Virus genome (UHGV): UHGV-1488538
Reading direction: 5' to 3' (one strand)
From: a virus
DNA length: 39,106 bases
The position numbers and the translations under genes were made by a program. The notes beneath the pieces were generated by a model. It did no database searches. It had not been told where the DNA came from and saw nothing but the letters and a program-made list of their open reading frames with translations. Each line of letters opens with the position of its first letter. Positions within the stretch are counted from its first letter, which is position 1. Shown here piece by piece: positions 11,839 to 33,859 of the stretch.

Positions 11839-12169
11839 ATCAGCAGCAGAGCGCAAAGCCGCTCAGAGAGCCAGACAAGCTGCATCTGGTGTGCGTAAGC
11901 TGGAGATTGTGCTTGATGCTCAGGAAATTGAAATTCTGGAGCGTAACTGTGCCACGCGTCGCCCCGGGCGTGCGCCTTACGAATTTGGTGAGTATATAGC
12001 GTTACTGATCCGCCAGGATGATGCACGCGTGCACGGGCGTATAAAATCGATCAGCAGAACACGTTGCGGTAAGTGCGGCGAGAGAGTTCCAGTTAATTCA
12101 TGTCCGTGTAATGGTGACTCACAATGCTGGGTGACTAAAGGCTGGCATGAAACGAAATTAATAGTGTGA
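11828..12169 (+). CDS. Hypothetical basic protein with C-terminal zinc-ribbon (CGKCG...CPCNG); candidate late regulator
   Basis: 113 aa; last gene before terminator and terminase operon. Confidence 0.5.
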   Translation: MMAKSAAERKAAQRARQAASGVRKLEIVLDAQEIEILERNCATRRPGRAPYEFGEYIALLIRQDDARVHGRIKSISRTRCGKCGERVPVNSCPCNGDSQCWVTKGWHETKLIV

Positions 12170-12177
12170 CATGTCAC
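12166..12177. repeat. 12-bp palindrome GTGACATGTCAC (copy 1 of 3)
   Basis: Exact; overlaps stop codon of gene 11828-12169. Confidence 0.7.
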
Positions 12178-12218
12178 GAGTAGATTATGCATGATGAATT
12201 TGACGGGTTTTGAATACT

Positions 12219-12245
12219 GCCGCCAACTATGGCGGCTTTATTTTG
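12219..12245 (+). terminator. Rho-independent terminator (GCCGCC-aactat-GGCGGC-TTTATTTT)
   Basis: 6-bp GC stem plus T-rich tail, immediately upstream of terminase operon. Confidence 0.7.
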
Positions 12246-12255
12246 CATGGTACTA

Positions 12256-12270
12256 TTACCACAACGGTAA
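12256..12270. promoter_or_regulatory. Operator TTACC-ACAAC-GGTAA in terminase 5' region
   Basis: Perfect palindrome 18 bp upstream of terminase small-subunit ATG. Confidence 0.65.
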
Positions 12271-12273
12271 CTA

Positions 12274-12288
12274 TTACCACGGTGGTTA
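12274..12288. promoter_or_regulatory. Operator-like TTACC-ACGGT-GGTTA overlapping terminase RBS and start
   Basis: 1 mismatch. Confidence 0.45.
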
Positions 12289-12884
12289 TGATGCCTGCTG
12301 AACCTAAAACCTATAAACGCAAATCAACGCAATTTAAGCCACTAACAGCAATGCAGGAGGCTTATTGCCAGTCATACATCAAAACGCCTGAAAACCAGAC
12401 TCAGGCAGCGATTAACGCAGGATTCTCCCCAAATACAGCGGCAGTTAAAGCCAGTGTCATGATGCGCGATGAACGCATTCAAAAACGGATTGCCGAGTTG
12501 ATGGAGGAGCGCAACAAACGAATGCGTGTCAGTGCTGATTACGTTCTCATGCGCCTGGTGGAGATCGACCAGATGGACGTGATCGACATCCTCAACGACG
12601 ATGGGAGCCTTAAACCAATCCGTGAGTGGCCGAAAATCTGGCGCACTACGCTTAGTGGCTTTGATCTGTCATCGACCATCATGAACATGAACGAGGATTC
12701 AATAGAGACAATCCTCAAAAAAATTAAATGGCCTGACAAGGTGAAGAACCTTGAGCTGATTGGTAAGCATGTTGATGTCAACGCATTCAAAGAACGTCTG
12801 GATGTTAATGTGAATGTGACAATTGCTGATCGCATAGCAGCAGCCAGGAAGCGACTCAAAGAACGTCAGGATGGTAATCAGTGA
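12288..12884 (+). CDS. Terminase small subunit
   Basis: Position immediately upstream of large terminase with 4-nt overlap; start at ATG 12288 (track ORF from 12210). Confidence 0.7.
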   Translation: MMPAEPKTYKRKSTQFKPLTAMQEAYCQSYIKTPENQTQAAINAGFSPNTAAVKASVMMRDERIQKRIAELMEERNKRMRVSADYVLMRLVEIDQMDVIDILNDDGSLKPIREWPKIWRTTLSGFDLSSTIMNMNEDSIETILKKIKWPDKVKNLELIGKHVDVNAFKERLDVNVNVTIADRIAAARKRLKERQDGNQ

Positions 12885-14356
12885 CAGATACAGCGTTATC
12901 TCCTGAAGAGCAGTTAATCGAGGATATTGCAGGGTTCACTCACGATCCGCTTGGCTATGCCCTCTATGCGTTCCCGTGGGGGGAAGATGGGACTGAACTG
13001 GCACATGCCACCGGTCCACGTCAGTGGCAGGCTGATGCGTTCCGAGAGATACGTGATCACCTGCAGAATCCAGAGACGCGCTATCAGCCGCTTATGCTGG
13101 CACGCGCTTCGGGTCACGGTATTGGTAAATCCGCATTCATCTCAATGCTGATCAACTGGGGCATGTCCACTTGCGAGGATTGTAAGGTTGTGGTGACCGC
13201 CAACACCGACAACCAGCTACGAACGAAGACCTGGCCGGAAATTATCAAGTGGTCGAACCTTGCTATCACGAAAGACTGGTTTACCTGTACCGCTACCGCG
13301 ATGTACAGCAATGATCCTGGACACGACAAGCGGTGGCGAGCTGACGCAATACCCTGGTCTGAGCACAACACTGAGGCATTCGCCGGACTACACAACGAGC
13401 GCAAACGCATCATCGTGGTATTCGATGAAGCGTCGAACATTGCGGATCTGGTGTGGGAAGTTGCTGAGGGTGCGCTTACGGACGAAGACACTGAGATTAT
13501 CTGGGTGGCGTTCGGAAACCCTACACGTAACACCGGGCGTTTTCGCGAATGTTTCCGCAAATATAAACACCGCTGGAAAACTGCGCAGATTGACAGCCGG
13601 ACGGTGGAAGGCACTAACAAACAGCAGTTGCAGAAATGGGTTGATGACTACGGGGAAGACAGCGACTTCGTTAAAATCCGTGTGCGCGGCATATTCCCGG
13701 ATGCATCTGAATTGCAGTTTATCCCTACCGGCCTTACTGACGAGGCAATGAAACGGGTGGTAACCGCTGCGCAGGTTGCACATGCTCCGGTGATAATCGG
13801 CGTTGACCCGGCATACTCCGGCGTTGATGACGCTGTGATATACCTGCGGCAGGGGCTGCACAGTAAGGTGCTGTGGACTGGCAACAAGACCACTGACGAT
13901 CTGATTATGGCGAAGCGTATCGCTGACTTTGAAGACCAGTACCAGGCTGACGCAGTGTTCATCGACTTCGGTTACGGAACTGGTCTGAAGTCAATCGGTG
14001 ATGGCTGGGGTCGTACATGGCAACTTGTTCCGTTCGGTGGCGCGTCTACTGACCCGCAGATGCTCAACAAGCGTGGGGAGATGTTCAACTCATGCAAGAC
14101 ATGGCTGAGGCTGGGCGGCATGCTGGATGACCAGGAAACAGCGGACGACCTGTCTGCGGCAGAGTACAAAGTTCGAGTGGACGGTAAAATCGTTATCGAA
14201 CCGAAGGAAGATATCAAGGAGCGGCTTGGGCGTTCTCCTGGTAAAGGCGATGCGCTACTGCTGACGTTTGCGTTCCCTGTGTCGAAGCGTCTGCGAATTC
14301 CCGGGCAGCAGAACCAGCAAGGCAAGGCCATCACAGATTACGATCCATATGCTTAA
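12881..14356 (+). CDS. Terminase large subunit
   Basis: 491 aa; Walker A-like GHGIGKS; size and position. Confidence 0.9.
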   Translation: MTDTALSPEEQLIEDIAGFTHDPLGYALYAFPWGEDGTELAHATGPRQWQADAFREIRDHLQNPETRYQPLMLARASGHGIGKSAFISMLINWGMSTCEDCKVVVTANTDNQLRTKTWPEIIKWSNLAITKDWFTCTATAMYSNDPGHDKRWRADAIPWSEHNTEAFAGLHNERKRIIVVFDEASNIADLVWEVAEGALTDEDTEIIWVAFGNPTRNTGRFRECFRKYKHRWKTAQIDSRTVEGTNKQQLQKWVDDYGEDSDFVKIRVRGIFPDASELQFIPTGLTDEAMKRVVTAAQVAHAPVIIGVDPAYSGVDDAVIYLRQGLHSKVLWTGNKTTDDLIMAKRIADFEDQYQADAVFIDFGYGTGLKSIGDGWGRTWQLVPFGGASTDPQMLNKRGEMFNSCKTWLRLGGMLDDQETADDLSAAEYKVRVDGKIVIEPKEDIKERLGRSPGKGDALLLTFAFPVSKRLRIPGQQNQQGKAITDYDPYA

Positions 14357-14407
14357 TCCGCTGGTGGGGATAATGTCGTTGATATCCTCTGATGAGGATA
14401 AAACAAA

Positions 14408-14431
14408 GCCAGCTCATCGGCTGGCTGTTTG
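14408..14431 (+). terminator. Terminator-like hairpin after terminase (GCCAGC-tcatcg-GCTGGC)
   Basis: 6-bp stem, weak T tail. Confidence 0.45.
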
Positions 14432-14442
14432 TGACATGTCAC
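14431..14442. repeat. 12-bp palindrome GTGACATGTCAC (copy 2 of 3)
   Basis: Exact; abuts terminator hairpin and 3' end of minus-strand moron. Confidence 0.7.
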
Positions 14443-14446
14443 GGTG

Positions 14447-14866
14447 TTACTTAATGGCATTAAATCCAGCGTTGATGGCTTCCGCAATATTGATGGCACT
14501 TGTTTTATCGAAGTGCCCATTCTGAATAAGCGCCGCATGCAGGCATTGTAACTTCATGTTGTATAAGTGTTCGCTCATGTAATCATTATCACTTTTTGCT
14601 TTAGCGTAAACAGCGCGAGAAATATCAAAAACATCGCCTTTTTCCATTTCAGAACGTTGTGCTGTTATCCAGTCATGGAACGTAACGCTAGTACCATGGT
14701 CTTCGCTAAGAGTTAACCCGGCCAGTCCCTCACTCTGAATTACTTCGTAATGCATTTCATTACCAGCAAAAACGCCATAAAAAATGCAGTCTTCAGCCTG
14801 AACGATACGAGAATATTTTAATGGCCATTCATTTAGATACTTAGCCAACATATCAATTGTCTTCAT
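14447..14866 (-). CDS. Hypothetical protein (139 aa), opposite-strand moron
   Basis: AAGGTGAG RBS; transcribed against flanking late genes. Confidence 0.6.
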   Translation of the reverse strand: MKTIDMLAKYLNEWPLKYSRIVQAEDCIFYGVFAGNEMHYEVIQSEGLAGLTLSEDHGTSVTFHDWITAQRSEMEKGDVFDISRAVYAKAKSDNDYMSEHLYNMKLQCLHAALIQNGHFDKTSAINIAEAINAGFNAIK

Positions 14867-14875
14867 GATCTCACC

Positions 14876-14900
14876 TTAAAAAATGCCCGGCGAACCGGGC
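14876..14900 (-). terminator. Hairpin GCCCGG-ttcg-CCGGGC plus U-run (minus strand)
   Basis: Directly upstream of moron RBS. Confidence 0.5.
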
Positions 14901-14977
14901 GAACTGGAAGCAATGAGTTATGCCTTCCGTGGCTGTACGGGTTTACAGCATGAAGTCATCGCAATGGCGTCCTGCTG

Positions 14978-15020
14978 TAAAAAGGGCGGTGATAGTCCTT
15001 CAAGGGAAACTATCACCGCC
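14978..15020 (-). terminator. Strong rho-independent terminator 3' of tRNA (12-bp stem GGCGGTGATAGT, U-run)
   Basis: 12-bp perfect inverted repeat followed by T-tract on the minus strand. Confidence 0.75.
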
Positions 15021-15063
15021 AAGCACCTGGAACTTCTGGCATCACGGTCCTTAGGCGTGATTC

Positions 15064-15140
15064 TGGCGTGGCATGCAGGATTCGAACCTGCGACCAACCG
15101 CTTAGAAGGCGGTTGCTCTGTCCAACTGAGCTAATGCCAC
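15064..15140 (-). tRNA. tRNA-Arg (anticodon UCU)
   Basis: 77-nt cloverleaf folded by hand on the minus strand: 7-bp acceptor stem GTGGCAT/ATGCCAC, D-arm GCTC/GAGC, anticodon stem ACCGC/GCGGT with loop CTTCTAA, T-arm GCAGG-TTCGAAT-CCTGC, encoded CCA. Confidence 0.9.
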
Positions 15141-15462
15141 AACGCTGAGAGCACTTAGCCTGTTAAGGCGCCACACTTTGTCGCGGCTCCATAAATGCTC
15201 TCATCGTTGTACCCTCGTCTCTTCCGAGGCGTCACACCGAATCGCCGGGATGGTGAATCCCCGTGCGCGGAATAAAACCGCTCGACTTGCACATTCCGGC
15301 TACCTGGTTCGTTTGCCACAGCCAGGGAGGGTGCCCCTTAAACGTATCCAGACCGCTATCGGCGCATGTGCCATACGCCGTACTGCTCAAAATAAAAGCT
15401 CACCCCACCTGTTCAATTTAACGACAAGCCAGTCAGGTTAATAACCGGAATGAACTCTTTGC

Positions 15463-15477
15463 TTACCTGAAGGGTAA
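15463..15477. promoter_or_regulatory. Operator TTACC-TGAAG-GGTAA upstream of virion operon
   Basis: Perfect palindrome about 90 bp upstream of first virion-module gene. Confidence 0.65.
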
Positions 15478-15567
15478 TAATTTGTGCGTTAAATGTCAAC
15501 TGTCTACGATAAATAAATCATATGTGGTTAAATTGGTAATAATTTAATTACGTACGGAGTCATTGAT

Positions 15568-15774
15568 ATGTGCATGGGTAGCTCACCATCAGTGCCTGCA
15601 ACACCAGAAGTTCAGGCAGCACCACAGGAGCAGGATGCCGCCGTTGTTGATGCCCGCGACGAAGAAACACGTCGCCGTCGCGCTGCTGCTGGTCGTAGTT
15701 CTACGCTGCTTACCGGTTCTCAGGGCGACACATCAACCGCTAATACCAGCGGTAAAACGCTGCTTGGTCAGTAA
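15568..15774 (+). CDS. Small hypothetical virion-module protein (68 aa)
   Basis: ORF track; first gene of virion operon. Confidence 0.5.
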   Translation: MCMGSSPSVPATPEVQAAPQEQDAAVVDARDEETRRRRAAAGRSSTLLTGSQGDTSTANTSGKTLLGQ

Positions 15775-15788
15775 CCGGAGTCATTGAA

Positions 15789-17468
15789 ATGGCGGAAACA
15801 ACTAAAGAGCGATTGAACAAACAGTTCGCACAACTTGAAAGCGAGCGTCAGTCGTTCGAGCCGCACTGGCGCGAGTTGAGTGATTACATCAACCCGCGTG
15901 GTTCCCGCTTTCTGACTTCTGAGGTCAACCGTAACGATCGACGCAATACACGCATTATTGATTCGACCGGGACTATGGCGGCGCGCACTCTCGCCAGCGG
16001 CATGATGTCAGGCATCACAAGCCCCGCGCGTCCGTGGTTTCGCCTGGCTACGCCAGATCCTGAAATGATGGATTATGGCCCTGTTAAGTTGTGGCTTGAG
16101 GCGGTGCAGAACCGCATGAACGATATGTTCAATAAGTCGAATCTCTACCAGTCTCTTCCGCAGTTATACGGAAGCCTCGGCACATACAGCACTGGTGCAA
16201 TGGCGGTGCTGGAGGATGACGAGGACATCATTCGCACAATGCCATTCCCGATAGGCAGTTACTACCTGGCTAACTCACCTCGTGGCAGTGTGGACACCTG
16301 TTTTCGCAAGTTCTCTATGACTGTTCGTCAGCTTGTTCAGGAGTTCGGGCTAAATAACGTCAGCGAATCTGTAAAAAGCATGTGGGAAAGCGGCACCTAC
16401 GAGAAGTGGATTGAAGTGATGCATTCGGTTTACCCGAACATTGACCGCGATACATCGAAGCTGGATAGCAAGAACAAGCCATTCAAATCGGTTTATTACG
16501 AGGTTGGTGGCGATAACGACAAGTTGTTGCGTGAGTCCGGATTCGATGAGTTTCCAATTATGGCTCCGCGCTGGGAAGTTAATGGCGAAGATGTTTATGG
16601 ATCATCATGCCCGGGTATGCTGGCGCTTGGACCTGTTAAGGCATTGCAGCTTCTCCAGAAGCGCAAGTCGCAGTTGATTGATAAAGCCACCAATCCGCCG
16701 ATGGTTGCTCCGACTTCCCTCAAGAATCAGCGTGCCTCCCTTCTTCCTGGCGACATCACGTATATCGATCAGATTACTGGTCAGGATGGCTTCAGGCCTG
16801 CTTATCTGGTTAACCCCAGTACAGCAGATTTGGTGGCAGACATTCAGGACACTCGTCAAATCATTAACAGCGCCTACTTCGTCGATCTGTTCATGATGTT
16901 GCAGAACATCAATACCCGCTCAATGCCTGTTGAAGCGGTGATCGAAATGAAAGAAGAAAAGCTTCTGATGTTGGGGCCGGTTCTGGAGCGTCTGAACGAC
17001 GAATGTCTTAATCCTCTCATTGACCGCGCTTTCTCGATGATGGTGCGTAAAAACATGCTGCCGCCACCGCCTGACGCGATGGAAGGCATTCCCCTGAAGG
17101 TCGAATACATTTCCGTCATGGCTCAGGCGCAGAAGTCTATCGGCCTGTCCAGTCTGGCGTCCACGGTTAACTTCATTGGTCAACTTGCGCAAGCGAAACC
17201 AGAAGCTCTCGACAAACTCAACGTTGATCAGGCGATCGATGCATTCGCTGATATGTCCGGAGTGTCTCCAACCGTCATTGTTCCGCAGGAACAGGTTGAG
17301 CAGGCTCGCCAGCAACGGGCACAGCAGCAACAGCAACAACAAATGATGGCGGTGGGGATGGCGGCGGCACAGGGTGCCAAGACGCTAAGCGAAGCTAAAA
17401 CTTCGGATCCGAGTGTTTTGACAGCTATGGCGAATGCAGTTAGTGGTCAGGGTGGGCAATCACAATGA
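15789..17468 (+). CDS. Portal (head-to-tail connector) protein, T7 gp8-like
   Basis: 559 aa; Gln-rich C-terminus QQRAQQQQQQQMMAVGMAAAQGA resembles the T7 connector C-terminus as recalled; gene order. Confidence 0.8.
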   Translation: MAETTKERLNKQFAQLESERQSFEPHWRELSDYINPRGSRFLTSEVNRNDRRNTRIIDSTGTMAARTLASGMMSGITSPARPWFRLATPDPEMMDYGPVKLWLEAVQNRMNDMFNKSNLYQSLPQLYGSLGTYSTGAMAVLEDDEDIIRTMPFPIGSYYLANSPRGSVDTCFRKFSMTVRQLVQEFGLNNVSESVKSMWESGTYEKWIEVMHSVYPNIDRDTSKLDSKNKPFKSVYYEVGGDNDKLLRESGFDEFPIMAPRWEVNGEDVYGSSCPGMLALGPVKALQLLQKRKSQLIDKATNPPMVAPTSLKNQRASLLPGDITYIDQITGQDGFRPAYLVNPSTADLVADIQDTRQIINSAYFVDLFMMLQNINTRSMPVEAVIEMKEEKLLMLGPVLERLNDECLNPLIDRAFSMMVRKNMLPPPPDAMEGIPLKVEYISVMAQAQKSIGLSSLASTVNFIGQLAQAKPEALDKLNVDQAIDAFADMSGVSPTVIVPQEQVEQARQQRAQQQQQQQMMAVGMAAAQGAKTLSEAKTSDPSVLTAMANAVSGQGGQSQ

Positions 17469-17761
17469 CAGATTACGAAGACGATCAACTGAAAGAAGAA
17501 AACGCCCGTAAGCAACGTGACATGGCGCAGCGTGAAATTGATGACATTCGCTTTGTCATGAGCAGTGAACAAGGGCGTCGCGTTGTCTGGTCGGTGCTGG
17601 AGAAAGGCCGTGTGTTTTCCGCTATCTCACCGATGGACGCTATGGCAATGGCATTTAATGAGGGGCAACGCAATCTGGCGCTGGAACTGTTTCAGCGCGT
17701 TATGGCGCATTGCCCTGAACAGTATTTGAAGATGGCCAAAGAGGCCAGTGAACAGGAGTGA
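17465..17761 (+). CDS. Hypothetical protein (98 aa)
   Basis: ORF track; ATGA overlap with portal stop. Confidence 0.55.
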   Translation: MTDYEDDQLKEENARKQRDMAQREIDDIRFVMSSEQGRRVVWSVLEKGRVFSAISPMDAMAMAFNEGQRNLALELFQRVMAHCPEQYLKMAKEASEQE

Positions 17762-17763
17762 TC

Positions 17764-18459
17764 ATGAATTTATTTGAGCGTTTGCTGTATCGCCGTCTTT
17801 GCAATGAGCAACCAGTCGATGGTGGAGCAGCTCCGGCTGCGTCAGAACCGTCAGCGCCTGCAGGTGATAACCCTGCTCCAGTTGGTGATCCATCACAACA
17901 GGAAGGTGATAAGCCACAACCTGTTGCTGATGGCGATAAACCTGCTGATGACAAAAAGCCTGAAAACGATAAGCAGGATGAAAAAAAGGACGGCGATAAA
18001 CCAGAGGGTGCGCCTGAAAAGTACGAGTTTCAGGCTGCCGAAGGCGTAGAGCTGGATACAGAAGCGTTGAAGGAATTCGAGCCGGTGGCGCGAGAACTAA
18101 ACCTGACCAACGAGCAAGCGCAAAAGCTGGTTGATGCTTATCCGAAGATTCTGGCAGGTGTTCAGCAGCGCCAGGCAGAAGCCTGGCAGAAAACAACCGA
18201 GCAGTGGGCTGCGGATGTAAAAGCTGACAAAGAAATCGGTGGCGACAAGTTGATTTCTAACCTTAGCGCCGCACAGCGTGCGCTTGACCAGTTCGGGACA
18301 CCTGAACTCAAAGAATATCTGAACACCACCGGGCTGGGTAATCACCCTGATCTGGTCAAAACGTTCGTGAAAATCGGAAAGGCGATGTCTGAAGATGGCA
18401 TGGTCACCGGTGGTAATGAAGGCCAGCGTAGTGCGGCCGAAGTGCTCTATGGCAAATAA
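17764..18459 (+). CDS. Scaffolding protein
   Basis: Acidic, Pro/Ala/Asp/Lys-rich low-complexity N-terminal half, helical C-terminus; between portal and capsid; AGGAG RBS before ATG 17764 (track start 17758 GTG). Confidence 0.7.
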   Translation: MNLFERLLYRRLCNEQPVDGGAAPAASEPSAPAGDNPAPVGDPSQQEGDKPQPVADGDKPADDKKPENDKQDEKKDGDKPEGAPEKYEFQAAEGVELDTEALKEFEPVARELNLTNEQAQKLVDAYPKILAGVQQRQAEAWQKTTEQWAADVKADKEIGGDKLISNLSAAQRALDQFGTPELKEYLNTTGLGNHPDLVKTFVKIGKAMSEDGMVTGGNEGQRSAAEVLYGK

Positions 18460-18467
18460 GAGAGGAA

Positions 18468-19460
18468 ATGACAATGGCTGTTAAAGGCTTAACTGCGCTA
18501 ACGCTGGCTGACTGGGGTAAGCGCGTCGATCCAAACGGGAAAGTCGATAAGATTATCGAGCTTCTCAGTCAAACCAACCCAATCCTTCAGGATATGCCTT
18601 TTGTTGAAGGAAACCTTCCTACCGGACACCGAACCACCATTCGTTCTGGTTTGCCTTCCGCTACTTGGCGTTTGCTGAACTATGGCGTACAACCGAGCAA
18701 ATCAACAACGGTGCAGGTCACTGATTCCATTGGCATGCTGGAAACCTATGCTGAAGTCGATAAGTCTCTGGCTGATCTGAACGGTAATACTGCCGAATTC
18801 CGCCTGTCTGAAGACCGAGCATTTATTGAAGCGATGAATCAGGCGATGGCGCAGACGCTGTTTTACGGTGATTCCAGCGTTAACCCTCAGCAGTTTATGG
18901 GACTGTCCTCCCGCTATTCCAGCCTGTCTGCGGGTAATGCTCAGAACATCATTGATGCTGGTGGCACGGGTACAGATAACACTTCAATCTGGTTAGTGGT
19001 GTGGGGCGAAAACACCGTGCATGGCATCTTCCCGAAAGGGCAGAAGGCTGGCATCCAGATGGAAGATAAAGGCCAGGTGACACTGGAAGATGCTAATGGC
19101 GGCAAGTACGAAGGTTATCGTACCCATTATAAGTGGGACAACGGGCTGACATTGCGTGACTGGCGCTATGTTGTTCGCATTGCAAACATCGATGTCAGCA
19201 ATCTTGACGCTCCTTCTACTGCTGCGAATATCGCAAAACTGATGATTCGTGCCCTTCATCGAATCCCAAATCGTGGGATGGGACGTCCTATTTTCTACAT
19301 GAACAGAACCATTAACGAAGTGCTTGACCTGCAATCTCTGGAGAAGAGTTCTCTGGCGATCAGCGTGAAAGAGACAGAAGGCGAATGGTGGACAGAACTT
19401 CGTGGTGTGCCGATTCGCGAAACTGACGCACTTCTGGAAACAGAAGCCCGCGTGGTGTAA
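18468..19460 (+). CDS. Major capsid protein
   Basis: 330 aa; position after scaffold; followed by stabilising hairpin 19477-19496. Confidence 0.8.
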   Translation: MTMAVKGLTALTLADWGKRVDPNGKVDKIIELLSQTNPILQDMPFVEGNLPTGHRTTIRSGLPSATWRLLNYGVQPSKSTTVQVTDSIGMLETYAEVDKSLADLNGNTAEFRLSEDRAFIEAMNQAMAQTLFYGDSSVNPQQFMGLSSRYSSLSAGNAQNIIDAGGTGTDNTSIWLVVWGENTVHGIFPKGQKAGIQMEDKGQVTLEDANGGKYEGYRTHYKWDNGLTLRDWRYVVRIANIDVSNLDAPSTAANIAKLMIRALHRIPNRGMGRPIFYMNRTINEVLDLQSLEKSSLAISVKETEGEWWTELRGVPIRETDALLETEARVV

Positions 19461-19511
19461 CGCCTGTTATTAACCTGTGGGTCGTAACAGACCCACTAAT
19501 GGAGAAAGAAG

Positions 19512-19949: not shown

Positions 19950-19950
19950 G

Positions 19951-20295: not shown

Positions 20296-20339
20296 GCCTC
20301 GCGAATCAGACAAGGGGCTTCGGCCCCTTTATTGCAGGA

Positions 20340-24209: not shown

Positions 24210-24748
24210 TGTGTAACCCAGCCATCGCTTTGGTTGCCGTCACAGTGGCATCCACAGCCGCGTCAATGTACAGCCAGAGCAAGCAGGCAAAATACCAGTC
24301 AGCCATAGCTGATCGGAATGCTGAAATTGCTGAAGCTCAGGCACAGGATTCAATCAATCGTGGGAATATTGAAGCGGATCAGCGTCGTCGTGAAATGCGT
24401 CAACGCTCAGGCACTGCGGCGGCCACTATGGGGGCTACCGGTGCGGAATTAAGTAGCGGAACAGCTCTTGACGTTTTTGCGGATAATGCTCAGTTCGGCA
24501 CTCTTGATGCGTTAACGACAGTGAATAATGCTCAGCGTGAGGCATATGGGTATCAGGTTCAGGGAATGAATGCTCAGGCACAGGGGGCTGCTGCTCAGTC
24601 GGCTGCTAAATCATCGATGACCAGCACTTTGTTAACGGCACCACTAAAAGCATACGGTGCATACCAGATGGGCGGCGGAACGTGGAGCCCGTTCTCTCAG
24701 AAGGCTGCGCCGATTTCTGCTGCTGTTGGCACTCCAACCGGTCGATAA
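24209..24748 (+). CDS. Internal virion protein B (T7 gp14-like)
   Basis: 179 aa; starts MC..., Ala/Gln-rich, C-terminus KAAPISAAVGTPTGR closely resembles T7 gp14 C-terminus as recalled. Confidence 0.7.
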   Translation: MCNPAIALVAVTVASTAASMYSQSKQAKYQSAIADRNAEIAEAQAQDSINRGNIEADQRRREMRQRSGTAAATMGATGAELSSGTALDVFADNAQFGTLDALTTVNNAQREAYGYQVQGMNAQAQGAAAQSAAKSSMTSTLLTAPLKAYGAYQMGGGTWSPFSQKAAPISAAVGTPTGR

Positions 24749-24760
24749 GGGGATAATAAG

Positions 24761-27274
24761 ATGCCAGTTGTACCAACAACATCGGGCCGTCAGGTTCAGA
24801 GCAGAGGGATTTCGACGCAGGGATTCTCATCGTTTCAGACACCAAATGTCGGTGATGTACTTGGCGATGTTGCAGAGCAATATGCAGGTATTATTGCGCA
24901 GGCAAAACAGCGTGCGAATGTTGCTATGGCTCAGGATGCTTCTCTTAGCTTAAGCCAGATAAGCAGCGATCTGCTGAATAACCCTGAAACAGGTTTGCTT
25001 AACCTGCAAGGGAAAAATGCTATTGGAAAAGGTCAGGAGTATACGCAGCAGTTTGATGCTCAGGTCGAACAACTGGCTATGTCGCTGCCGGATGAACAGG
25101 CTCGTAATGCTTTCATGCAGCAGGCGCAGCAGCAGCGCATTCAGTTCACTACGCAGGCCGGGCGGCACGAGATAGGGCAAATAAATGCCTACGAAGAAGG
25201 CCAGTTTCAGGCTACGCTGCTGAACAATGGTAAAAATGCCGCAGCATTGTATGGCGACAACGCCGCATACGTATTGGCTAATAAGCAAACTTTCCAGCAA
25301 ATTGAGGATTACGGCATTGCACATGGCTGGAGTGACGAGCAAATCCAGGCCAAGAAAATCGAGTTTAAAGAAGCAACAGCAAAAGCAACTGCTCAAAATG
25401 CTATTGGAGCAAACTATCTTCAGGTAAGACAGCAAAACGGCGAGTTAAGCGATACTGCTGCTGGTTCTCGCCGTGCTGTAGCAGATAGTGGCTCTTCCGA
25501 TCGTACCCGCGGTATACGCAACAATAACCCCGGCAATCTTGAATACAGCAAAACTAATCCGTGGGTTGGGCAGACTGGTGATGATGGTCGCTTTGCCAAA
25601 TTCGAAACCCCTGAACACGGTATTCGTGCATTAGGGCGGAACCTGATGTCGTATCAGCGGCAGGGTATTGATACCGTCAGCGAGATAATTAATCGCTGGG
25701 CACCGCCTACTGATAAAAATGACACTATGTCGTATATCAAAGCAGTGTGCGAACAACTTGGCGTTTCTGCTGATGAGCCTCTCGATGCATCAAATCCTGA
25801 TACCCTGAAGGCGCTTTGTGCAGCCATTATCCATCATGAAAACGGTAGCCAGCCATACAGTGATCAGCAGTTAACTGCAGGTGTTAGTGCTGCGCTGGGG
25901 CTTTCTCAGCTACCGACAAAAAATAAACGTTATACCGGTGTAGCCTGGTTCGATGCTTTAAGTGAATCAGATCAGGCCAGCGTGTTGCGACAGACTGATG
26001 CACTAGCCAGACAACAGCAGGCTGAATATAAAACGATGCTCGACAGCCGGGTTCGCGATGCGACGGCTGCGTATATGCGTGGCATTGAATTTCCTAACCC
26101 ACCTGGTGAGGATGATTTTATTGCAGCTTATGGAGTCAGAGAAGGAAACCTGCGATATACCGAGTTTAAGAATACGCAGATCGCCGGACAGTATATAGGC
26201 TCTTTCCGCAACATGCCGACAAGCAGCATTACAGCATATGTTGAGCAATTACGCCCGGATACTGGTGATACAGGGGAGGGGTATGCGGCACGCGCAACTC
26301 TTTATGACAACGTTGTTTCGGCTGCAAATCAGGTGATAAAGCAGCGGCAGTCGGATCCTGTGCAGTTCTCTCTTGCCTCCGGACAGGCAAAGCCTATCGA
26401 CATGAGCAATAAGGATAACTTTGGACAGAGCGTTGCCTTGCGTGCCGCTCAGGTCAGTGACCTTGCTAAGTCATATGGCACTCCACTGACGTTCTTTTCC
26501 AAAGACGAGGCCAATCAGATCGGTGTTTTCTTTCGTGATGCTCCAGTTTCCCAACAGGCAGCATATCTCGATACCATCAGGCAGAGCACTGGTGGTGGGC
26601 AGGTGTATATGTCAGCACTACAGCAGATCAGTGCCAACGCTCCATCTGCTGCCGTTGCCGGGATACTGATGGATAAGCCTGGTGGTATTTTGGCAGAAAA
26701 AAACTGGTTTAATCCGGATGTTTCCGTGTCTCCTGAAACCGCTGCGCAGACAATTCTTGCTGGCGCGGCGGCTCGTAAAGGTACTGATGATGCGAAAGGT
26801 ATTCCGATGCCTAAAGATGCTGATCTTCGCCTTGAGTTTTCTGACATGGTGAAGGATGCATTTGCTGGTGACGCTCAGGGCGCATCAATGGCATACGAGA
26901 TCGCAAAGGATTATTACGCTGGTGTGATGGCGAAAAAAGGCGTGGTATCAGGCGAAATTGACAATGATGTCTGGAAACAGGCTGTTAACGTAGCTACAGG
27001 TGGCGTGCATGACTATAACGGAATGGGGAATGTCCTTTTGCCGTGGGGAATGTCTGCAGAGCAATTCGATAAGCAGGTTAATCAGGCTTGGAATGAACAA
27101 GTTGTCGGCTCCGGGATAAAAACACCGCCTGGTCAGTATGGTTTGCAAAGTTACGGCGATAGTCAGTACCTGGTGAAACTTGGTACTGGTTATCTGCTGA
27201 AAGATGATGGTTCTCCCGTTGTTCTTAATCTGACACAGAAGCGTCAGAGATTCTCCGGAGATATTCCGCAATGA
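24761..27274 (+). CDS. Internal virion/ejection protein (gp15-like), possible peptidoglycan-hydrolase domain
   Basis: 837 aa; segment RGIRNNNPGNLEYSKTNPWVGQTGDDGRFAKFETPEHGIRALGRNL reminiscent of phage structural lysozyme domains (tentative). Confidence 0.6.
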   Translation: MPVVPTTSGRQVQSRGISTQGFSSFQTPNVGDVLGDVAEQYAGIIAQAKQRANVAMAQDASLSLSQISSDLLNNPETGLLNLQGKNAIGKGQEYTQQFDAQVEQLAMSLPDEQARNAFMQQAQQQRIQFTTQAGRHEIGQINAYEEGQFQATLLNNGKNAAALYGDNAAYVLANKQTFQQIEDYGIAHGWSDEQIQAKKIEFKEATAKATAQNAIGANYLQVRQQNGELSDTAAGSRRAVADSGSSDRTRGIRNNNPGNLEYSKTNPWVGQTGDDGRFAKFETPEHGIRALGRNLMSYQRQGIDTVSEIINRWAPPTDKNDTMSYIKAVCEQLGVSADEPLDASNPDTLKALCAAIIHHENGSQPYSDQQLTAGVSAALGLSQLPTKNKRYTGVAWFDALSESDQASVLRQTDALARQQQAEYKTMLDSRVRDATAAYMRGIEFPNPPGEDDFIAAYGVREGNLRYTEFKNTQIAGQYIGSFRNMPTSSITAYVEQLRPDTGDTGEGYAARATLYDNVVSAANQVIKQRQSDPVQFSLASGQAKPIDMSNKDNFGQSVALRAAQVSDLAKSYGTPLTFFSKDEANQIGVFFRDAPVSQQAAYLDTIRQSTGGGQVYMSALQQISANAPSAAVAGILMDKPGGILAEKNWFNPDVSVSPETAAQTILAGAAARKGTDDAKGIPMPKDADLRLEFSDMVKDAFAGDAQGASMAYEIAKDYYAGVMAKKGVVSGEIDNDVWKQAVNVATGGVHDYNGMGNVLLPWGMSAEQFDKQVNQAWNEQVVGSGIKTPPGQYGLQSYGDSQYLVKLGTGYLLKDDGSPVVLNLTQKRQRFSGDIPQ

Positions 27275-29073
27275 GTTACTTTGGCCTTAATCCAGTAAAC
27301 CAGAATCAGCAGCTTGACGAAGCAGCATCAAATCCAGCTGGCTTTAACAGCGATGTTGGTTTTTTCGACAATGCTGTAGGAGCGGCATTGTCTGGTTTGT
27401 ACTCCGGGCTGGTGGCAAAGCCAGATCAGTTGCTATGGGCAGGGATGGATAAAATCGTATCCCCGATTGCTCAGTTTGTTAACGAAAACACCTCGATCAA
27501 TGACACTTCAGTTTCATACATTGCTGAGCAGAGAAAACTAGCAGAGCAGCAGGTTAAGCGGCTGACGCCTGATGCCGCGACAACCGGAACCGCCGGGCAG
27601 GTCCTTTATGGGTTGTTCGATATGGGCGGGCAGGCTGTTGTCGGTACAACGCTCGGTGGTCCGGTCGGAGGTGCTGCGGCGGTAACTTCTCTACAGGGTT
27701 TTTCTGAGTTTGAACGGCTTACAGCACAGGGTGTTGATTTCAGGACGGCGCAGGAAGCGGGATTAGTGCAGGGTATTACTGCTGGTGCCGGAACACTGAT
27801 CCCTATGAGCCTCGGGTTACGTGCTGGTGGTGCGCTGGCGGAAGGTGTGGCGGCTCAGCTTGCGCGGACGGGTGAAAGTTCAGTGCGACGCGCCGCAGCA
27901 ACAGCAGTACGTGCAACGCCAGATATTGCCTATGCCGCAGGTACAAATATTGCGTTCGGTATGGCACAGCGTGGGCTTACTGCAAAAACGCTTCGTGATG
28001 GTGGCTATAGCGAAATGGCTAACCAGTATGATGTGTTGGATCGACAGGCAATTGCTATTGATGCTGTTCTTGGGGTGGCGTTTGGTGGTGTCGGCAGATT
28101 TATTAACTCTCGCGGCGAGTCTACAAGCGCACCAAATTTTTCACCAGTTGATATCGATGCTGCACTGGCGGCGAATGCCGCTCATCATGCTGAAATTGAT
28201 ATTGCTCCCGGCGTGCCGATCAACGTGCTTTCGCGTAATTCGCACATTCAGGCTCTGCGAAAAGCCATGTCTGATGTTAGCCAGGGGAGACCTGTAGACG
28301 TTGCCAGCATTGTTGAGTCTGCATCTTTCAGTGAAATTCCTGGACGCAAGAGTCTGCTGTCTCAGGCAGTTAATGAGGCTCTGTCATCTGTAGATGATGG
28401 AGTAACGGCGCGCGCTATAGAAAATCGGTTGCTTGAAGAACAGGCCGCGCAGCTTTTGCCGCGTGGCGATAGACAGGTTTACCAGTCTGAAATCGCTAAT
28501 AGCCAACGAATTATTGAAAATCTCACTGAACAGCGCGCACAAATTCTTGCAGAAGATCCAGCCGGTAGCGGTAAGGCTTTATCTCGTGCTCGATCAGATA
28601 AACAGGCCAGACTTCGCGATATTGACCAACGAATCCGGCAGGCACAAGAACGCCTGGAATTTTCTCGTAACGCGTTGGCACCGCATGAGCCTGGCGGTCA
28701 GTTTTTTGAAGCTCGAGCAGAACTGGCTCGGAGACAGCAGGCAGAAAGTGAACTTAATGCTCAGGCTGTTTCATTCTATAAAACAGCAGAGGTCAGGACG
28801 CCAGACGAAGTAGCTCCTTTTGAGCCTGATAAAATATTGCAACAGGCAGAACAAAAAATGATGTCAGATCAGGCAGGAGATATTGATTTGCGCATAGCTG
28901 AAGACTCGCTGCTTGAATCACCTGACATGATAATCACCGTGCTGGATGATGATGGTAATCCACAATCGCGCAGTGCGCGTGAAGCACTGGATGAAGCGAA
29001 CAGGGAAAGTGAGCAGGCAATACAGGATTCCAGCCTGTTTGATGTCGCTGTGGCGTGTTTCTTGAGAGGTTAA
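27271..29073 (+). CDS. Internal virion/ejection protein
   Basis: 600 aa; gene order. Confidence 0.55.
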   Translation: MSYFGLNPVNQNQQLDEAASNPAGFNSDVGFFDNAVGAALSGLYSGLVAKPDQLLWAGMDKIVSPIAQFVNENTSINDTSVSYIAEQRKLAEQQVKRLTPDAATTGTAGQVLYGLFDMGGQAVVGTTLGGPVGGAAAVTSLQGFSEFERLTAQGVDFRTAQEAGLVQGITAGAGTLIPMSLGLRAGGALAEGVAAQLARTGESSVRRAAATAVRATPDIAYAAGTNIAFGMAQRGLTAKTLRDGGYSEMANQYDVLDRQAIAIDAVLGVAFGGVGRFINSRGESTSAPNFSPVDIDAALAANAAHHAEIDIAPGVPINVLSRNSHIQALRKAMSDVSQGRPVDVASIVESASFSEIPGRKSLLSQAVNEALSSVDDGVTARAIENRLLEEQAAQLLPRGDRQVYQSEIANSQRIIENLTEQRAQILAEDPAGSGKALSRARSDKQARLRDIDQRIRQAQERLEFSRNALAPHEPGGQFFEARAELARRQQAESELNAQAVSFYKTAEVRTPDEVAPFEPDKILQQAEQKMMSDQAGDIDLRIAEDSLLESPDMIITVLDDDGNPQSRSAREALDEANRESEQAIQDSSLFDVAVACFLRG

Positions 29074-29078
29074 ATTAA

Positions 29079-31553
29079 ATGAGACAGGAATGTATACAAG
29101 CGGTTCAGCAGGCGGCGCAGCGCATGTTAACGGCGCGAGAAATACAGAACATTGAAGACCGCATTTATCGAAATATGCGCTCCATTGCTCGTGATGACCC
29201 TATGTCGTGGCGACAACTTTCCGAATCAGAGCGGCTATATCGAGCAGCACAATTGGCATCTGAAGAATTACAGCGAGAAGCGGCATTAAAGAAACGTCGT
29301 GTGGCTCTCACTATAGCCGCGCGTCAGAGATTGGATAAATTTATCAATAGCTATCAAGGGGCTGATGGGAAACTTGGCGCTCTTAACCGTACTATAGCTT
29401 TTAATGCAGACGGTAAATCTAATTTCCTCTCTGTTGAATCCAGAACAAAAGCCACCCGTGATTATGCATTGAGTCAATTGCAGGAGGCATTCGAAGCAGT
29501 TGATCCTCGCTTTTTTGGTCTGTTTGAAGATGAAGCGGGCGTACGTGACCTGGTATATGAAATGCGGGGGCAAAATACTGGCAATGCTAAAGCAAGAAAC
29601 GGTGCTAAGGCGTGGAGAGAAGTTACAGAGCTGCTGCGCCGCCGGTTTAATGATGCTGGTGGGGACATTGGCTATCTCGAAAACTGGGGGATCCCTCAAC
29701 ATCATTCTATGGAAAAGGTTGGGGCAGTATCAAAGGATAAGTGGGTTAGCGATGTTATAGGTAAGCTGGATCGCAAATATTATATCCGAGCCGATGGACA
29801 ACTGATGAACGATGCAGAGTTGTCTTCATTTCTTGGAGAGGCTTATAACACGATCGCTACTGGTGGGCTGAATAAGCTTACTGATACCGGAATGCGAATT
29901 TCCGGCGCACGTGCTAACCGTGGTAATGCATCACGACAGATACATTTCAAAGATGCAGATTCCTATCTGCAATATCAGCAACTTTATGGCGATCGCTCTC
30001 TATGGGAAATCATGGTCTGTCACCTGGAAGGTATCAGTAAAGATATTGCACTGGTGGAAACATATGGCCCAAACCCCGATCATGTTTTCCGCTCTCTTCT
30101 TGATCAGGTGAAGGCAGAAACGGCAACAGTTAACCCGAGTAAAACCGGTAAAGTCGAGCGGCTGGCGAACAACACAGAGAATCTGTACAACTTTATTTCC
30201 GGAAAGACACAGCCTGTAGCGAATCCGCACATCGCGCGATGGTCTGACAATATCCGCAACTGGCTGGTTGCCAGCAGACTCGGATCCGCGTTGCTGTCAT
30301 CGTTCTCTGATCTTGGAACCATGTATCTGTCTGCGAAGGTTACCAACCTTCCAATGAACCAGTTATTCCGCAACCAGCTTGAAGCTATGGACCCAACGAA
30401 CCGTACAGAACTTGCGCGGGCGCGCCGCGCTGGTCTGGCGATGGAATCTCTACTTGGCAGCGTTAACCGCTGGGCGATGGATAATATGGGGCCGTCAGTG
30501 TCTCGTTGGGCGGCAACGGCGGTAATGCGTGCCAGTGGGCTTACAGCATGGTCAGATGCGCACAAGCGCGCCTATGGCGTAACCATGATGGGAAGCCTGG
30601 GAGAAGTAGTGTCACGGACACCAGACCTTCGTAGCCTCGATGACTCTGATTTTCGTATCCTGAAAAGCAAAGGGATTACTGACACAGACTGGAGCGTATG
30701 GAAGCTGGCGAAACAGGAGGACTGGGGGAACGGTAATAATACGATGCTGACACCGGAAAGCATTATGCGTATCCCTGATTCAGCAGTTAAACATCTTGGT
30801 GAGCCTGAACGCGTGAAATTTGAGGCAATGCGTAAACTGCTCGGTGCCGTAACTGAAGAAGTTGATATGGCTGTTATTACACCGGGAGCACGTGAGCAAC
30901 TGATAACCGGTTCTGGTATTCAGCGTGGAACATGGAAAGGTGAATTAACGAGAAGTGTTTTCCTGTTTAAATCGTTCCCTATCTCGGTTGTTATGCGTCA
31001 CTGGTCACGCGCTATGGGTATGCCGTCTGCTGGTGGGCGTGCGGCATATATTGCGACGTTTATTGCCAGTACGACCATTCTTGGCGCTTTGTCGCAGCAA
31101 CTTAACGACCTTGCGTCTGGTCGTAATCCTCGAGAGATGACAGGAGAAGATGCCGCAAAATTCTGGCTTGGTGCTCTACTGAAAGGTGGTGGTCTTGGCC
31201 TTTACGGTGACTTTTTATTGTCAGATCACACTAGGTACGGAAGCGGCGCGCTGGCGTCGATGCTTGGCCCGGTAGCTGGTCTGGTTGATGACGTAGTGAA
31301 GATTGCTCAGGGCATACCGTTAAATGCTGTGGAAGGGAAGAGTGAGCAGACTGGTGGTGATCTGGTGAAGCTGGGGAAAGGTTTGATGCCTGGTGCGAAT
31401 CTCTGGTACTTGAAGGCGGCTCTCGATCACATGATCTTTAACCAGATGCAGGAGTATTTTTCACCAGGCTATTTGCGTAAAATGGAGCAACGTTCGAAGA
31501 AAGAGTTTAACCAGACATACTGGTGGCGACCACAGGATGTCACTCCGCAATAA
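29079..31553 (+). CDS. Internal virion/ejection protein (gp16-like)
   Basis: 824 aa; gene order. Confidence 0.55.
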   Translation: MRQECIQAVQQAAQRMLTAREIQNIEDRIYRNMRSIARDDPMSWRQLSESERLYRAAQLASEELQREAALKKRRVALTIAARQRLDKFINSYQGADGKLGALNRTIAFNADGKSNFLSVESRTKATRDYALSQLQEAFEAVDPRFFGLFEDEAGVRDLVYEMRGQNTGNAKARNGAKAWREVTELLRRRFNDAGGDIGYLENWGIPQHHSMEKVGAVSKDKWVSDVIGKLDRKYYIRADGQLMNDAELSSFLGEAYNTIATGGLNKLTDTGMRISGARANRGNASRQIHFKDADSYLQYQQLYGDRSLWEIMVCHLEGISKDIALVETYGPNPDHVFRSLLDQVKAETATVNPSKTGKVERLANNTENLYNFISGKTQPVANPHIARWSDNIRNWLVASRLGSALLSSFSDLGTMYLSAKVTNLPMNQLFRNQLEAMDPTNRTELARARRAGLAMESLLGSVNRWAMDNMGPSVSRWAATAVMRASGLTAWSDAHKRAYGVTMMGSLGEVVSRTPDLRSLDDSDFRILKSKGITDTDWSVWKLAKQEDWGNGNNTMLTPESIMRIPDSAVKHLGEPERVKFEAMRKLLGAVTEEVDMAVITPGAREQLITGSGIQRGTWKGELTRSVFLFKSFPISVVMRHWSRAMGMPSAGGRAAYIATFIASTTILGALSQQLNDLASGRNPREMTGEDAAKFWLGALLKGGGLGLYGDFLLSDHTRYGSGALASMLGPVAGLVDDVVKIAQGIPLNAVEGKSEQTGGDLVKLGKGLMPGANLWYLKAALDHMIFNQMQEYFSPGYLRKMEQRSKKEFNQTYWWRPQDVTPQ

Positions 31554-31561
31554 AAGGAGAT

Positions 31562-31687
31562 ATGATGGTTCAAATAACTTTTATTGTACTAATATGTGCA
31601 GCGTTTTTATGCTATTCATACATTTTGATAAAAATGGGTTTCAATTGGAATCTCTGTTGCGTGCAGCGGCATGGTTCGGCTTTGTAG
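31562..31687 (+). CDS. Small hydrophobic peptide (41 aa), putative membrane protein
   Basis: AAGGAGA RBS then ATGATG; product MMVQITFIVLICAAFLCYSYILIKMG...; alternative overlapping track ORF 31537-31725 in another frame. Confidence 0.3.
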   Translation: MMVQITFIVLICAAFLCYSYILIKMGFNWNLCCVQRHGSAL

Positions 31688-31772
31688 TATTCGGAATTGT
31701 ATTGTTCGGAAGAATAATAAAATAACTAGTTAATTTGTGGATTGGTGCTGTTTTTCCATGATAGGGGTAATT

Positions 31773-32153
31773 ATGAGAAAAGTATTTTTGATTTTTGGAT
31801 TTATGCTTCTCGTTGGATGCCAGTCAGCTGCACAGTTTGAAAGAAATATGCTTACGTGGCGCGGGCAGAGTATAGACGCAATGGTTCAGCAGTGGGGGTA
31901 TCCTCAGGGAGAGCTTACATCTCCAGATGGAAACAGAGTGTATGTTTACTCAAGCTCTGGTAGTTATAACGTACCACAAACCACAACGTATAATACTACG
32001 TCTAATCTAATTGGTAATACTATATATTCAAACACATACGCAACAACTGATGGCGGTTATACACTCCATTTCAGTTGCTCTGTTTACGTTGAGTTTGGTG
32101 CTGATAAGATTATTAAAAATGTTACATGGCGCGGTAATAATTGCGTTGCGTGA
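31773..32153 (+). CDS. Lipoprotein (signal peptide plus lipobox LLVGC), moron
   Basis: MRKVFLIFGFMLLVGCQS...; AGGGG RBS; AT-rich relative to surroundings; track ORF from 31737. Confidence 0.7.
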   Translation: MRKVFLIFGFMLLVGCQSAAQFERNMLTWRGQSIDAMVQQWGYPQGELTSPDGNRVYVYSSSGSYNVPQTTTYNTTSNLIGNTIYSNTYATTDGGYTLHFSCSVYVEFGADKIIKNVTWRGNNCVA

Positions 32154-32161
32154 CATGTCAC
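32150..32161. repeat. 12-bp palindrome GTGACATGTCAC (copy 3 of 3)
   Basis: Exact; overlaps lipoprotein stop codon, abuts terminator. Confidence 0.7.
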
Positions 32162-32162
32162 A

Positions 32163-33831: not shown

Positions 33832-33859
33832 GGTGGTTATCTCCACTTAGTGATTTTAA

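Follow-up and report, generated by a model that had tools for sequence, protein, structure and literature searches.

A recurrent palindrome in an epsilon15-like prophage

UHGV virus genome UHGV-1488538, a single stretch of 39,106 nucleotides (nt) that we refer to as the window, is by sequence comparison an epsilon15/phiV10-like podovirus prophage of the genus Uetakevirus. Its terminase region is 95-98% identical to those of PAS61, HEMP4, O157 typing phages 9 and 10, and phiV10, but only ~80% identical to that of epsilon15, whose flanks differ. Prophages of this type sit beside guaA in E. coli chromosomes, at 2.63 Mb in MG1655 coordinates. In this study, we analysed a 12-bp palindrome, GTGACATGTCAC, which is found exactly three times in the window (Table 1). 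An earlier examination of the letters by themselves (hereafter, the sequence-only reading) had reported these three copies, and all of them are exact. The 12-mer was absent from 100 dinucleotide-preserving shuffles of the window, and tolerating up to two mismatches yielded one extra match, at 17517, which is at chance level.

At all three copies the order, followed along the direction of the upstream gene, is stop codon, palindrome, and intrinsic terminator. As previously described, the TGA stops of the gp49-like gene and of the lipoprotein moron lie within copies 1 and 3, respectively, and copies 1 and 2 bracket the terminase genes, the product of the small subunit gene being a Pfam Terminase_2 protein. 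The accompanying statement that each copy adjoins a terminator is correct with small amendments: every copy has a terminator nearby, but the two abut at copy 3 alone, being 4 nt apart at copy 2 and 41 nt apart at copy 1. The minus-strand accessory gene ends in a TAA 5 nt away from copy 2, and the hairpin at copy 2 is common to the ends of this gene and of the terminase operon. Because the good T-run is on the minus strand, this terminator mainly serves the opposite-strand gene. The palindrome itself was considered as an intrinsic terminator and rejected, since the 12-mer folds at -1.2 kcal/mol, the same as shuffled sequence, and the true terminators are separate adjacent hairpins. An Rfam search of the whole window detected only a tRNA, isrK, and C4 RNA, all away from the palindromes, and the 12-mer matched no family. 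The TTACC-N5-GGTAA inverted repeat, which matches a predicted repressor-binding site of epsilon15, suggests that the operon following copy 1 is under its own control, and the late operons may, from this match, be under direct repressor control. As a side observation, copy 3 is ~70 nt past the terminator that closes the operon of the isrK-like RNA, C4 RNA, and anti-repressor gene described below.

Table 1. Palindromes, neighbouring features of the window, and related sites in other loci (L numbers are locus labels)
Feature	Position	Strand	Remarks
Palindrome copy 1, tGTGACATGTCACg	12166-12177	.	holds TGA stop of gp49-like gene
Palindrome copy 2, tGTGACATGTCACg	14431-14442	.	between terminase large subunit gene and convergent minus-strand accessory gene
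Palindrome copy 3, cGTGACATGTCACa	32150-32161	.	holds TGA stop of lipoprotein moron; abuts terminator
Presumed cognate protein gene, epsilon15 gp49 / PhiV10p55 family, phrog_536	11831-12169	+	112 aa; stop overlaps copy 1
Intrinsic terminator, end of early-right operon	12219-12244	+	stem 12219-12236, 7 pairs (6 GC), TTTATTTT; 41 nt past copy 1
TTACC-N5-GGTAA inverted repeat	12256-12270	.	upstream of terminase small subunit gene; matches epsilon15 predicted repressor-binding site
Intrinsic terminator of minus-strand accessory gene	14400-14426	-	hairpin 14426-14407, then TTGTTTT; 4 nt from copy 2
Variable accessory gene, phrog_4846, function not assigned	14447-14866	-	ends 5 nt from copy 2; slot holds other genes in relatives
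Variable lipoprotein moron, phrog_3716	31773-32153 (alternative start 31737)	+	ends inside copy 3; lipobox MRKVFLIFGFMLLVG, then C
Intrinsic terminator abutting copy 3	32162-32187	+	hairpin 32162-32179, then TGTTTTT
ydaT-like-gene sites	L149 584; L154 3447; L163 780; L168 2723; L170 2138; L180 1420		positions within locus
LexA-box cases, among them Citrobacter/Kluyvera/Erwinia-type prophages with TACTGTttaaatgtACAGTA	L125, L126, L132 ~6380-6410; L131 ~6585-6615; also L006, L007, L010		
Half-site arrays	L023 ~10760-10870; L042 ~755-800; L052 ~3140-3185; L071 ~1890-1960; L109 ~10810-10900		

Coupling of the palindrome to the gp49 gene

The gene that ends in copy 1 belongs to the epsilon15 gp49 family, and the palindrome accompanies this gene well beyond the Uetakevirus group. 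We collected 70 loci (789 kb) from species-dereplicated bacterial genomes by gp49 homology alone, which removes motif-selection bias; the homologues were 43-79% identical, and the genera included Citrobacter, Klebsiella, Pantoea, Erwinia, Pectobacterium, Xenorhabdus, Photorhabdus, Providencia, Serratia, Rahnella, and Yersinia. As the set was gathered with a narrower family alignment, it is biased toward Enterobacterales. A perfect GTGAC-NN-GTCAC was present between -30 and +45 nt of the stop codon of the homologue in 52 of the 70 loci, and with one mismatch in three more, where the chance expectation is ~7e-5 per locus. The offset of the site from the stop was -3 in 31 loci, +5 in 13, and +24 in three, with a few others, and some loci had two copies. 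The site is therefore independent of the coding sequence rather than its by-product. Together with the shuffles and the coupling in 52 loci, the varied offsets rule out chance or a coding by-product as the origin of the palindrome. In IMG/VR contigs retrieved with the motif, the gp49 homologues all terminated within a palindrome or shortly ahead of one, even where the downstream DNA was unrelated. A scan of IMG/VR with the 14-mer gave, by a rough estimate, a number of matches near chance expectation overall, and the matches had to be sorted by context.

The architecture of the site is strict. In the 789 kb, the half-sites were separated by 2 bp in 74 sites, compared with 0-3 sites for each spacer of 0, 1, or 3-6 bp and 0-1 sites with the half-sites in inverted order. 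The centre was AT in 60 sites, others having GT, CT, AC, AG, or GC. In 95% of 86 sites, the bases just outside the 12-mer were a 5' pyrimidine and a 3' purine; the element is therefore effectively 14 bp long, with Y-GTGAC-NN-GTCAC-R as its fuller consensus and AT favoured in the centre. The association with terminators is real but partial: a terminator-like structure lay within 60 nt of 29 of the 74 sites (39%), compared with 16-18% of random positions or stop codons. The units downstream of the homologue varied, and all were separately regulated: terS (the terminase small subunit gene) or terminase genes, LexA-box genes including a UmuD-like one, xis-int, PrtN-like genes, and toxin-antitoxin genes.

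Six loci without a near-stop site carried one inside a ydaT-like gene 3-6 kb upstream. In prophages of Morganella, Xenorhabdus, Providencia, and Yersinia, the exact GTGACATGTCAC lies near the 3' end of such a gene (Pfam YdaT_toxin), where it encodes ..G(R/C)DMS.. and is kept though the flanking codons diverge.

Conservation in relatives and in other phage groups

The junctions equivalent to those of the window carry exact copies at all three positions in PAS61, epsilon15, and SPN1S. In phiV10 there are two exact copies, copy 2 among them, and a one-mismatch version, GTGACATGTTAC, spans the record ends at the position of copy 1. In TL-2011b, copy 1 is kept and copy 2 was lost along with the replaced junction. 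Copy 3 together with its GGCCGC..GCGGCC hairpin is conserved behind at least seven different upstream genes. The sequence-only reading had offered to give up its proposal if homologous phages lacked the palindrome at these junctions; they carry it. The epsilon15 record, which annotates terminators, repressor, IHF, and RNase III sites, marks nothing at the palindrome positions, and our literature search found the 12-mer and five variants in no relevant paper, nor any paper on matS-like or MatP-like elements of phages.

Distant gp49 homologues (31-41% identity) occur in quite different phage types, namely Vibrio, Enterobacterales, and Aeromonas phages in the phage database, and they too are accompanied by sites, for which the expectation is ~0.04 GTGAC-N2-GTCAC per 40 kb. 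N15 contains exactly three sites with the 2-bp spacer, all GTGACTGGTCAC in either orientation: on the stop of gene 46, which encodes the gp49 homologue, between gene 33 and the immA antirepressor operon, and inside repA. phiKO2 has sites at the three homologous positions; the partition sites annotated in phiKO2 are a different palindrome, GTGCGACCACGGTCGCAC, so a partition role was rejected. Vibrio phage K233 has three sites, two GTGACACGTCAC and one GTGACGCGTCAC, two of which are ~20 nt upstream of start codons, one being that of terS. In a Yersinia P2-like phage, a single site lies on the stop codon of the homologue. In the window, N15, and K233, all mostly coding genomes, seven of the nine sites are intergenic; the exceptions are the N15 site in repA and a K233 site within a gene, 21 nt from its 3' end. 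Sites of the same genome share their centre dinucleotide (AT three times in the window; TG/CA three times in N15 and in phiKO2; AC, AC, and GC in K233), which is specific to the group, as would be expected if a single protein had several sites in each genome.

A LexA-box promoter directly follows the gp49 homologue and its site in several unrelated phage groups. The cases in Citrobacter/Kluyvera/Erwinia-type prophages are listed in Table 1. In the Yersinia P2-like phage (L202 ~8640) the LexA box is at a tum-like position, and in N15 (L196 39564) it is ~300 nt downstream, in a region that presumably encodes AntC.

The gp49-family protein

The gp49 family has 149 representatives at 50% clustering among 1.84 billion proteins. 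Its members, of ~110-130 aa, share a basic N-terminal helix (AERKAAQRARQ in gp49), a core with (R/K)K-x-E-x-x-L ... PY..EY...LI, and a Cys-rich C-terminus with fully conserved C79 and C82 and almost fully conserved C99 and P87. Sequence searches with gp49 gave no Pfam, NCBIfam, or PDB match, and a PDB profile search gave insignificant zinc-finger matches only. An AlphaFold2 model built from a diverse alignment reached a mean predicted local distance difference test score (pLDDT) of 90, compared with 61 for a poor earlier model built from close homologues. The top structural matches of the better model were of the ribbon-helix-helix (RHH) class. These matches suggest that the N-terminal core of gp49 is RHH-like; its Cys-rich C-terminal part is zinc-finger-like. 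Foldseek against viral structures returned only a fragment of the gp49 family itself. A connection to defence genes was considered and rejected, PADLOC giving no matches for the gp49-like protein and five neighbouring products, including those of the accessory genes at copies 2 and 3. In SPN1S, the homologue (38348-38656) has a replaced N-terminus, MATTTTRRQNLL..., without the basic helix. Breaks in homology are likewise concentrated at 11825 of the window, at the start of its gp49 gene.

Resemblance to matS

The half-sites of the phage palindrome are identical to those of matS, a 13-bp host site of the form GTGAC[AG]N[TC]GTCAC whose E. coli consensus is GTGACATTGTCAC (PMC3603311, PMC8669397), and GTGACATGTCAC equals this consensus minus one central T. 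The sequence-only reading had recognised no known host-factor site in the palindrome; it had thus passed over a site that differs by a single central base. The difference is consistent, as all copies in the window are 12 bp long with a 2-bp centre, and the 70 gp49 loci contained no 13-bp site. Whereas matS is confined to the chromosome terminus (Ter) region and has an RNY centre, the phage sites travel with the phages, including plasmid prophages, and the prophage type of the window sits beside guaA, outside Ter. GTGAC-N2-GTCAC was not found in 213 kb of sampled E. coli chromosome, which included 100 kb of Ter with one true matS; the 95% upper bound is ~1 per 70 kb. The same sample speaks against a genome-wide host repeat of the type of repetitive extragenic palindromes or bacterial interspersed mosaic elements (REP/BIME), and against the frequent occurrence in the host genome that the sequence-only reading had named as counter-evidence. 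By these sequence comparisons, the phage palindrome is not matS, nor is it a common host motif.

It is very unlikely, in our estimation, that the palindrome is a site for a host protein, chiefly MatP, by which the phage would use or perturb host chromosome organisation directly. The shared half-sites would suit such a role, as would the origin of the phage gp49 homologues from Vibrio, Enterobacterales, and Aeromonas phages, whose hosts belong to clades having MatP. However, the spacer is 2 bp and not 3 (74 sites of 12 bp against none of 13 bp), the site tracks a phage gene and not a host, and both the guaA location and the host sample, Ter included, are at odds with it. Prophages, moreover, have been reported to avoid matS or to carry none (PMC3603311). 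By way of contrast, K233 has, besides its three sites, one true 13-bp matS-type motif, GTGACACCGTCAC, at 19491.

A different relation to MatP is conceivable, though we regard it as unlikely: gp49 and its sites could be a phage-borne counterpart of MatP/matS, a dedicated system for organising or insulating DNA in which a few sites per genome would divide the phage chromosome into domains by bridging or looping via the zinc-finger-like domain, or they could interact with host Ter biology (MatP, MukBEF, divisome). The one-base difference would hide the phage sites from MatP, which would fit the reported avoidance of matS by prophages. MatP has a four-helix bundle and a coiled coil, whereas the gp49 model has neither and shows the Cys-rich C-terminus instead. 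Homology between gp49 and E. coli MatP was not detectable (hhalign probability 0.16%). Given the near-identity to matS, one may ask whether phages purposely keep one base away from a signal that organises the host chromosome.

A predicted gp49 operator at operon ends

The coupling of the palindrome to one small phage gene makes it likely, in our judgement, that the site is a protein operator, predicted to be read by the gp49 family. The protein-binding site considered in the sequence-only reading is in this respect supported, the candidate ligand being an RHH-like phage protein and not a host factor. A gp49 dimer, held together by its RHH-like core, would read the two GTGAC half-sites at their fixed 2-bp spacing. 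Each gp49-bearing phage would keep a few such sites, typically three, and with few exceptions these would occupy the scarce non-coding gaps where transcription units end, which in the window are the end of the early-right operon, the convergent junction of the terminase and accessory genes, and the end of the virion operon. There, the bound protein could act as a roadblock or insulator and, with the neighbouring terminator, stop RNA polymerase between separately regulated modules; it might also bridge sites. This boundary effect is a tentative proposal, about which we are rather doubtful, and it is the part of the model that goes furthest beyond the observations. Taken as a whole, the model of a gp49-family operator at operon ends that acts as a boundary element, and secondarily as a junction, is the one we moderately favour. 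As 12-14 bp that stay constant amid diverging DNA, the sites would also serve as recombination points, which would explain why accessory genes are exchanged precisely there.

Why a protein barrier might be needed can be sketched from the early region. Strong intrinsic terminators stand directly after the cro-like gene (6869-6888, +) and after the repressor gene (5838-5857, -), inside early operons, which suggests that the downstream early genes need read-through or antitermination. An antiterminated polymerase can ignore intrinsic terminators. If transcription past 6869-6888 in the right operon is antiterminated, a protein at the operon end might, speculatively, be what is needed to halt it. 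Roadblocks such as lac repressor or CodY/CcpA are proteins tightly bound within a transcription unit or at its end that halt elongating RNA polymerase from either direction, and gp49 as proposed would act in the same mode; as a point of difference, only 39% of the phage sites are paired with an intrinsic terminator. We know of no dedicated phage boundary protein of this kind.

Among characterised systems, the RHH repressor-operator pairs (Arc and Mnt of P22, CopG, ParD/TacA antitoxins) resemble the proposed one, in that they combine a small dimeric RHH-type protein with a short palindrome and a gene beside the site. In contrast to these, the phage sites mark the 3' end of the gene and the ends of operons and not a gp49 promoter, their half-sites are invariant while the centre is not, the same site is kept across ~30% identical proteins and across phage families, and gp49 has an additional zinc-finger-like domain.

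Several observations weigh against the operator and boundary model. The case for gp49 binding rests on the co-occurrence of gene and site, and 18 of the 70 homologue loci have no perfect site near the stop, ~10 of them none within 6 kb. In SPN1S, all three palindromes are intact despite the replaced N-terminus of the homologue. Classical RHH proteins use the beta-ribbon to read the centre of their operators; because the centre of the palindrome is variable, recognition of GTGAC would have to fall to another part of gp49. As for the boundary effect, no more than 39% of the sites have a terminator nearby, and copies 2 and 3 are 1-4 nt before a hairpin, where a protein is not obviously needed. 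Finally, several sites of N15, phiKO2, and K233 are 1-10 nt before a ribosome-binding site, which would also suit repression of the next gene or a role in RNA. A site for a late-promoter activator was also considered and rejected, as a promoter-like match within 128 nt was present in only 19 of 107 unique flanks, with no preferred distance; the match GTGACA-18-CATGAT at copy 1 is at chance level.

If gp49 does bind, it and the palindrome would form a new protein-operator pair with no Pfam family, on which our literature search found no paper, and the pair would be common to epsilon15-like podoviruses, N15-like plasmid prophages, P2-like and lambdoid prophages, and Vibrio phages, with an unusually constant specificity. 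The pair would also offer a concrete and testable molecular answer to two old questions of phage genomics: how tightly packed genomes keep separately regulated modules insulated, and why the same places recur as mosaic junctions and as insertion points for accessory genes. The motif could also be used as a landmark for accessory-gene slots in these prophages, many of which are in pathogenic E. coli and Salmonella.

Alternative explanations

The sequence-only reading had also suggested a recombination junction and had proposed comparing the module breakpoints of related prophages with the palindrome. When the 60-nt flanks of every site, anchored on the palindrome, were compared with the flanks in the window, breakpoints and palindrome coincided in most loci. 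At copy 1, both flanks were homologous in 17 loci and the gp49 side alone in 38; at copy 2, the terminator side alone in 15, the other side alone in two, and both in one; and at copy 3, the terminator side alone in 14 and both in one. Copy 3 marks the end of at least seven unrelated genes, and at least eight genes stop within ~5 nt of copy 2, the distance being nearly fixed; BLAST matches to related phages begin or end at 32149 and 32180 of the window. Hendrix and colleagues reportedly described conserved boundary sequences at lambdoid mosaic junctions, and morons; as there, accessory genes with their own terminators lie here between conserved modules with breakpoints at a short conserved sequence, but in this case it is one specific palindrome, common to unrelated phage families and tied to one protein gene. 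The pattern, together with the RecE/RecT- or Bet-type recombinases that these phages encode, could mean that the palindrome is primarily a recombination site, either a boundary sequence for accessory-gene exchange or the target of a site-specific recombinase, with protein binding secondary. We regard this as improbable. The positions are identical where both flanks are homologous (the 17 copy 1 loci, and all three copies between epsilon15 and the E. coli phages), sites free of any junction lie inside conserved genes (repA of N15 and phiKO2, and the ydaT-like genes), and the strict spacing with its Y/R flanks resembles protein recognition. Moreover, no dedicated recombinase co-occurs with the sites, and the coupled protein is small and has no recognisable catalytic domain, as judged by Pfam, NCBIfam, and PDB sequence comparison. 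Judged as an att/attC-type site, the palindrome coincides with breakpoints, but it lacks a co-occurring recombinase, and its sites within conserved genes show no junction. Because the sites persist between homologous flanks and inside conserved genes, obey a protein-like spacing, and travel without a recombinase, we read the junction role as secondary, probably a consequence and not the function of the palindrome.

The palindrome could instead act in RNA. In this reading, a host factor, or gp49 with its arginine-rich N-terminus, would recognise the transcript GUGACAUGUCAC as a small hairpin or a linear motif, and the element would govern termination, processing, or the translation of the gene that follows. 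Its place just upstream of the terminator hairpins along transcription at all three copies fits this idea, as do the N15, phiKO2, and K233 sites that precede a ribosome-binding site by 1-10 nt, the basic helix AERKAAQRARQ at the start of gp49, and the fact that an AT-centred palindrome gives identical RNA from either strand. However, the hairpin of the 12-mer is no better than shuffled sequence at -1.2 kcal/mol, and over the 86 sites the stem is invariant, with no covariation, whereas the variation falls in the centre, where the loop would be. The opposite pattern, a covarying stem and a conserved loop, is typical of hairpins bound by arginine-rich motifs. Asymmetric centres also occur in both orientations relative to transcription: close relatives have AC or GT at one and the same position, and in N15 the orientation of site 2 is the reverse of that of sites 1 and 3. 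The Rfam search gave no family. We give such an RNA element little chance, and an RNA role is less likely than a DNA operator. The invariant stem positions, the variable centre, and the two orientations led us to reject a nut/boxB-type site as well. The likeness to lambda N/nut boxB and Q/qut lies in the gp49 gene being the last early gene, directly before a terminator and the late genes, and in its arginine-rich N-terminus. In contrast to lambda antitermination, the phage sites have no covarying hairpin or conserved loop and no fixed promoter geometry, they are also found at the far end of the late operon and at convergent junctions, and N15 has its own Q-like gene elsewhere. The last suggestion of the sequence-only reading was a packaging signal, which could be a site for pac recognition or an accessory terminase site. 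In its favour are the two copies that bracket the terminase genes and the K233 site 20 nt upstream of terS. Rather than a single pac or cos site in or beside the terminase small subunit gene, we found three dispersed copies and varied homologue neighbourhoods, often with xis-int, LexA-box genes, or toxin-antitoxin genes and in most loci not beside terminase genes, and the cos phages N15 and phiKO2 have their sites in the immA region, repA, and gene 46, far from cos/terS. This suggestion is thus not supported and extremely improbable, and the gp49 operator is the reading we prefer.

Other features

Arrays of five to eight GTGAC/GTCAC half-sites in GC-rich IMG/VR phages (Table 1) were considered as part of the gp49 system and rejected; they are inside coding sequence, look like origin iterons, and are apparently unrelated. 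The gene with the L023 array, by eye, resembles what we take to be a DUF1376/YdaU-like replication gene. In the window itself, two identical 20-mers, TGGGATCATTCAACATCCCG, 24 nt apart at 7564-7607 (-) and within the open reading frame 7214-8029, whose homologues are DnaT-like replication initiation proteins, were flagged as terminator-like, yet resemble origin iterons more. A tRNA gene at 15067-15140 (-), annotated as tRNA-Arg in related phages and prophages, lies between the post-terminase accessory genes and the portal gene. The minus-strand antirepressor control region near copy 3 (33880-34064) is like P1 immI and N15 immA, with Rfam matches to an isrK-like RNA (33988-34064) and a C4 antisense RNA (33880-33963). 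The gene downstream of these RNAs (33121-33846, -) has homologues annotated as Bro-N domain protein or anti-repressor in relatives, and a near-consensus LexA box, CTGTATATTTATACAG, is present at 34427-34442.

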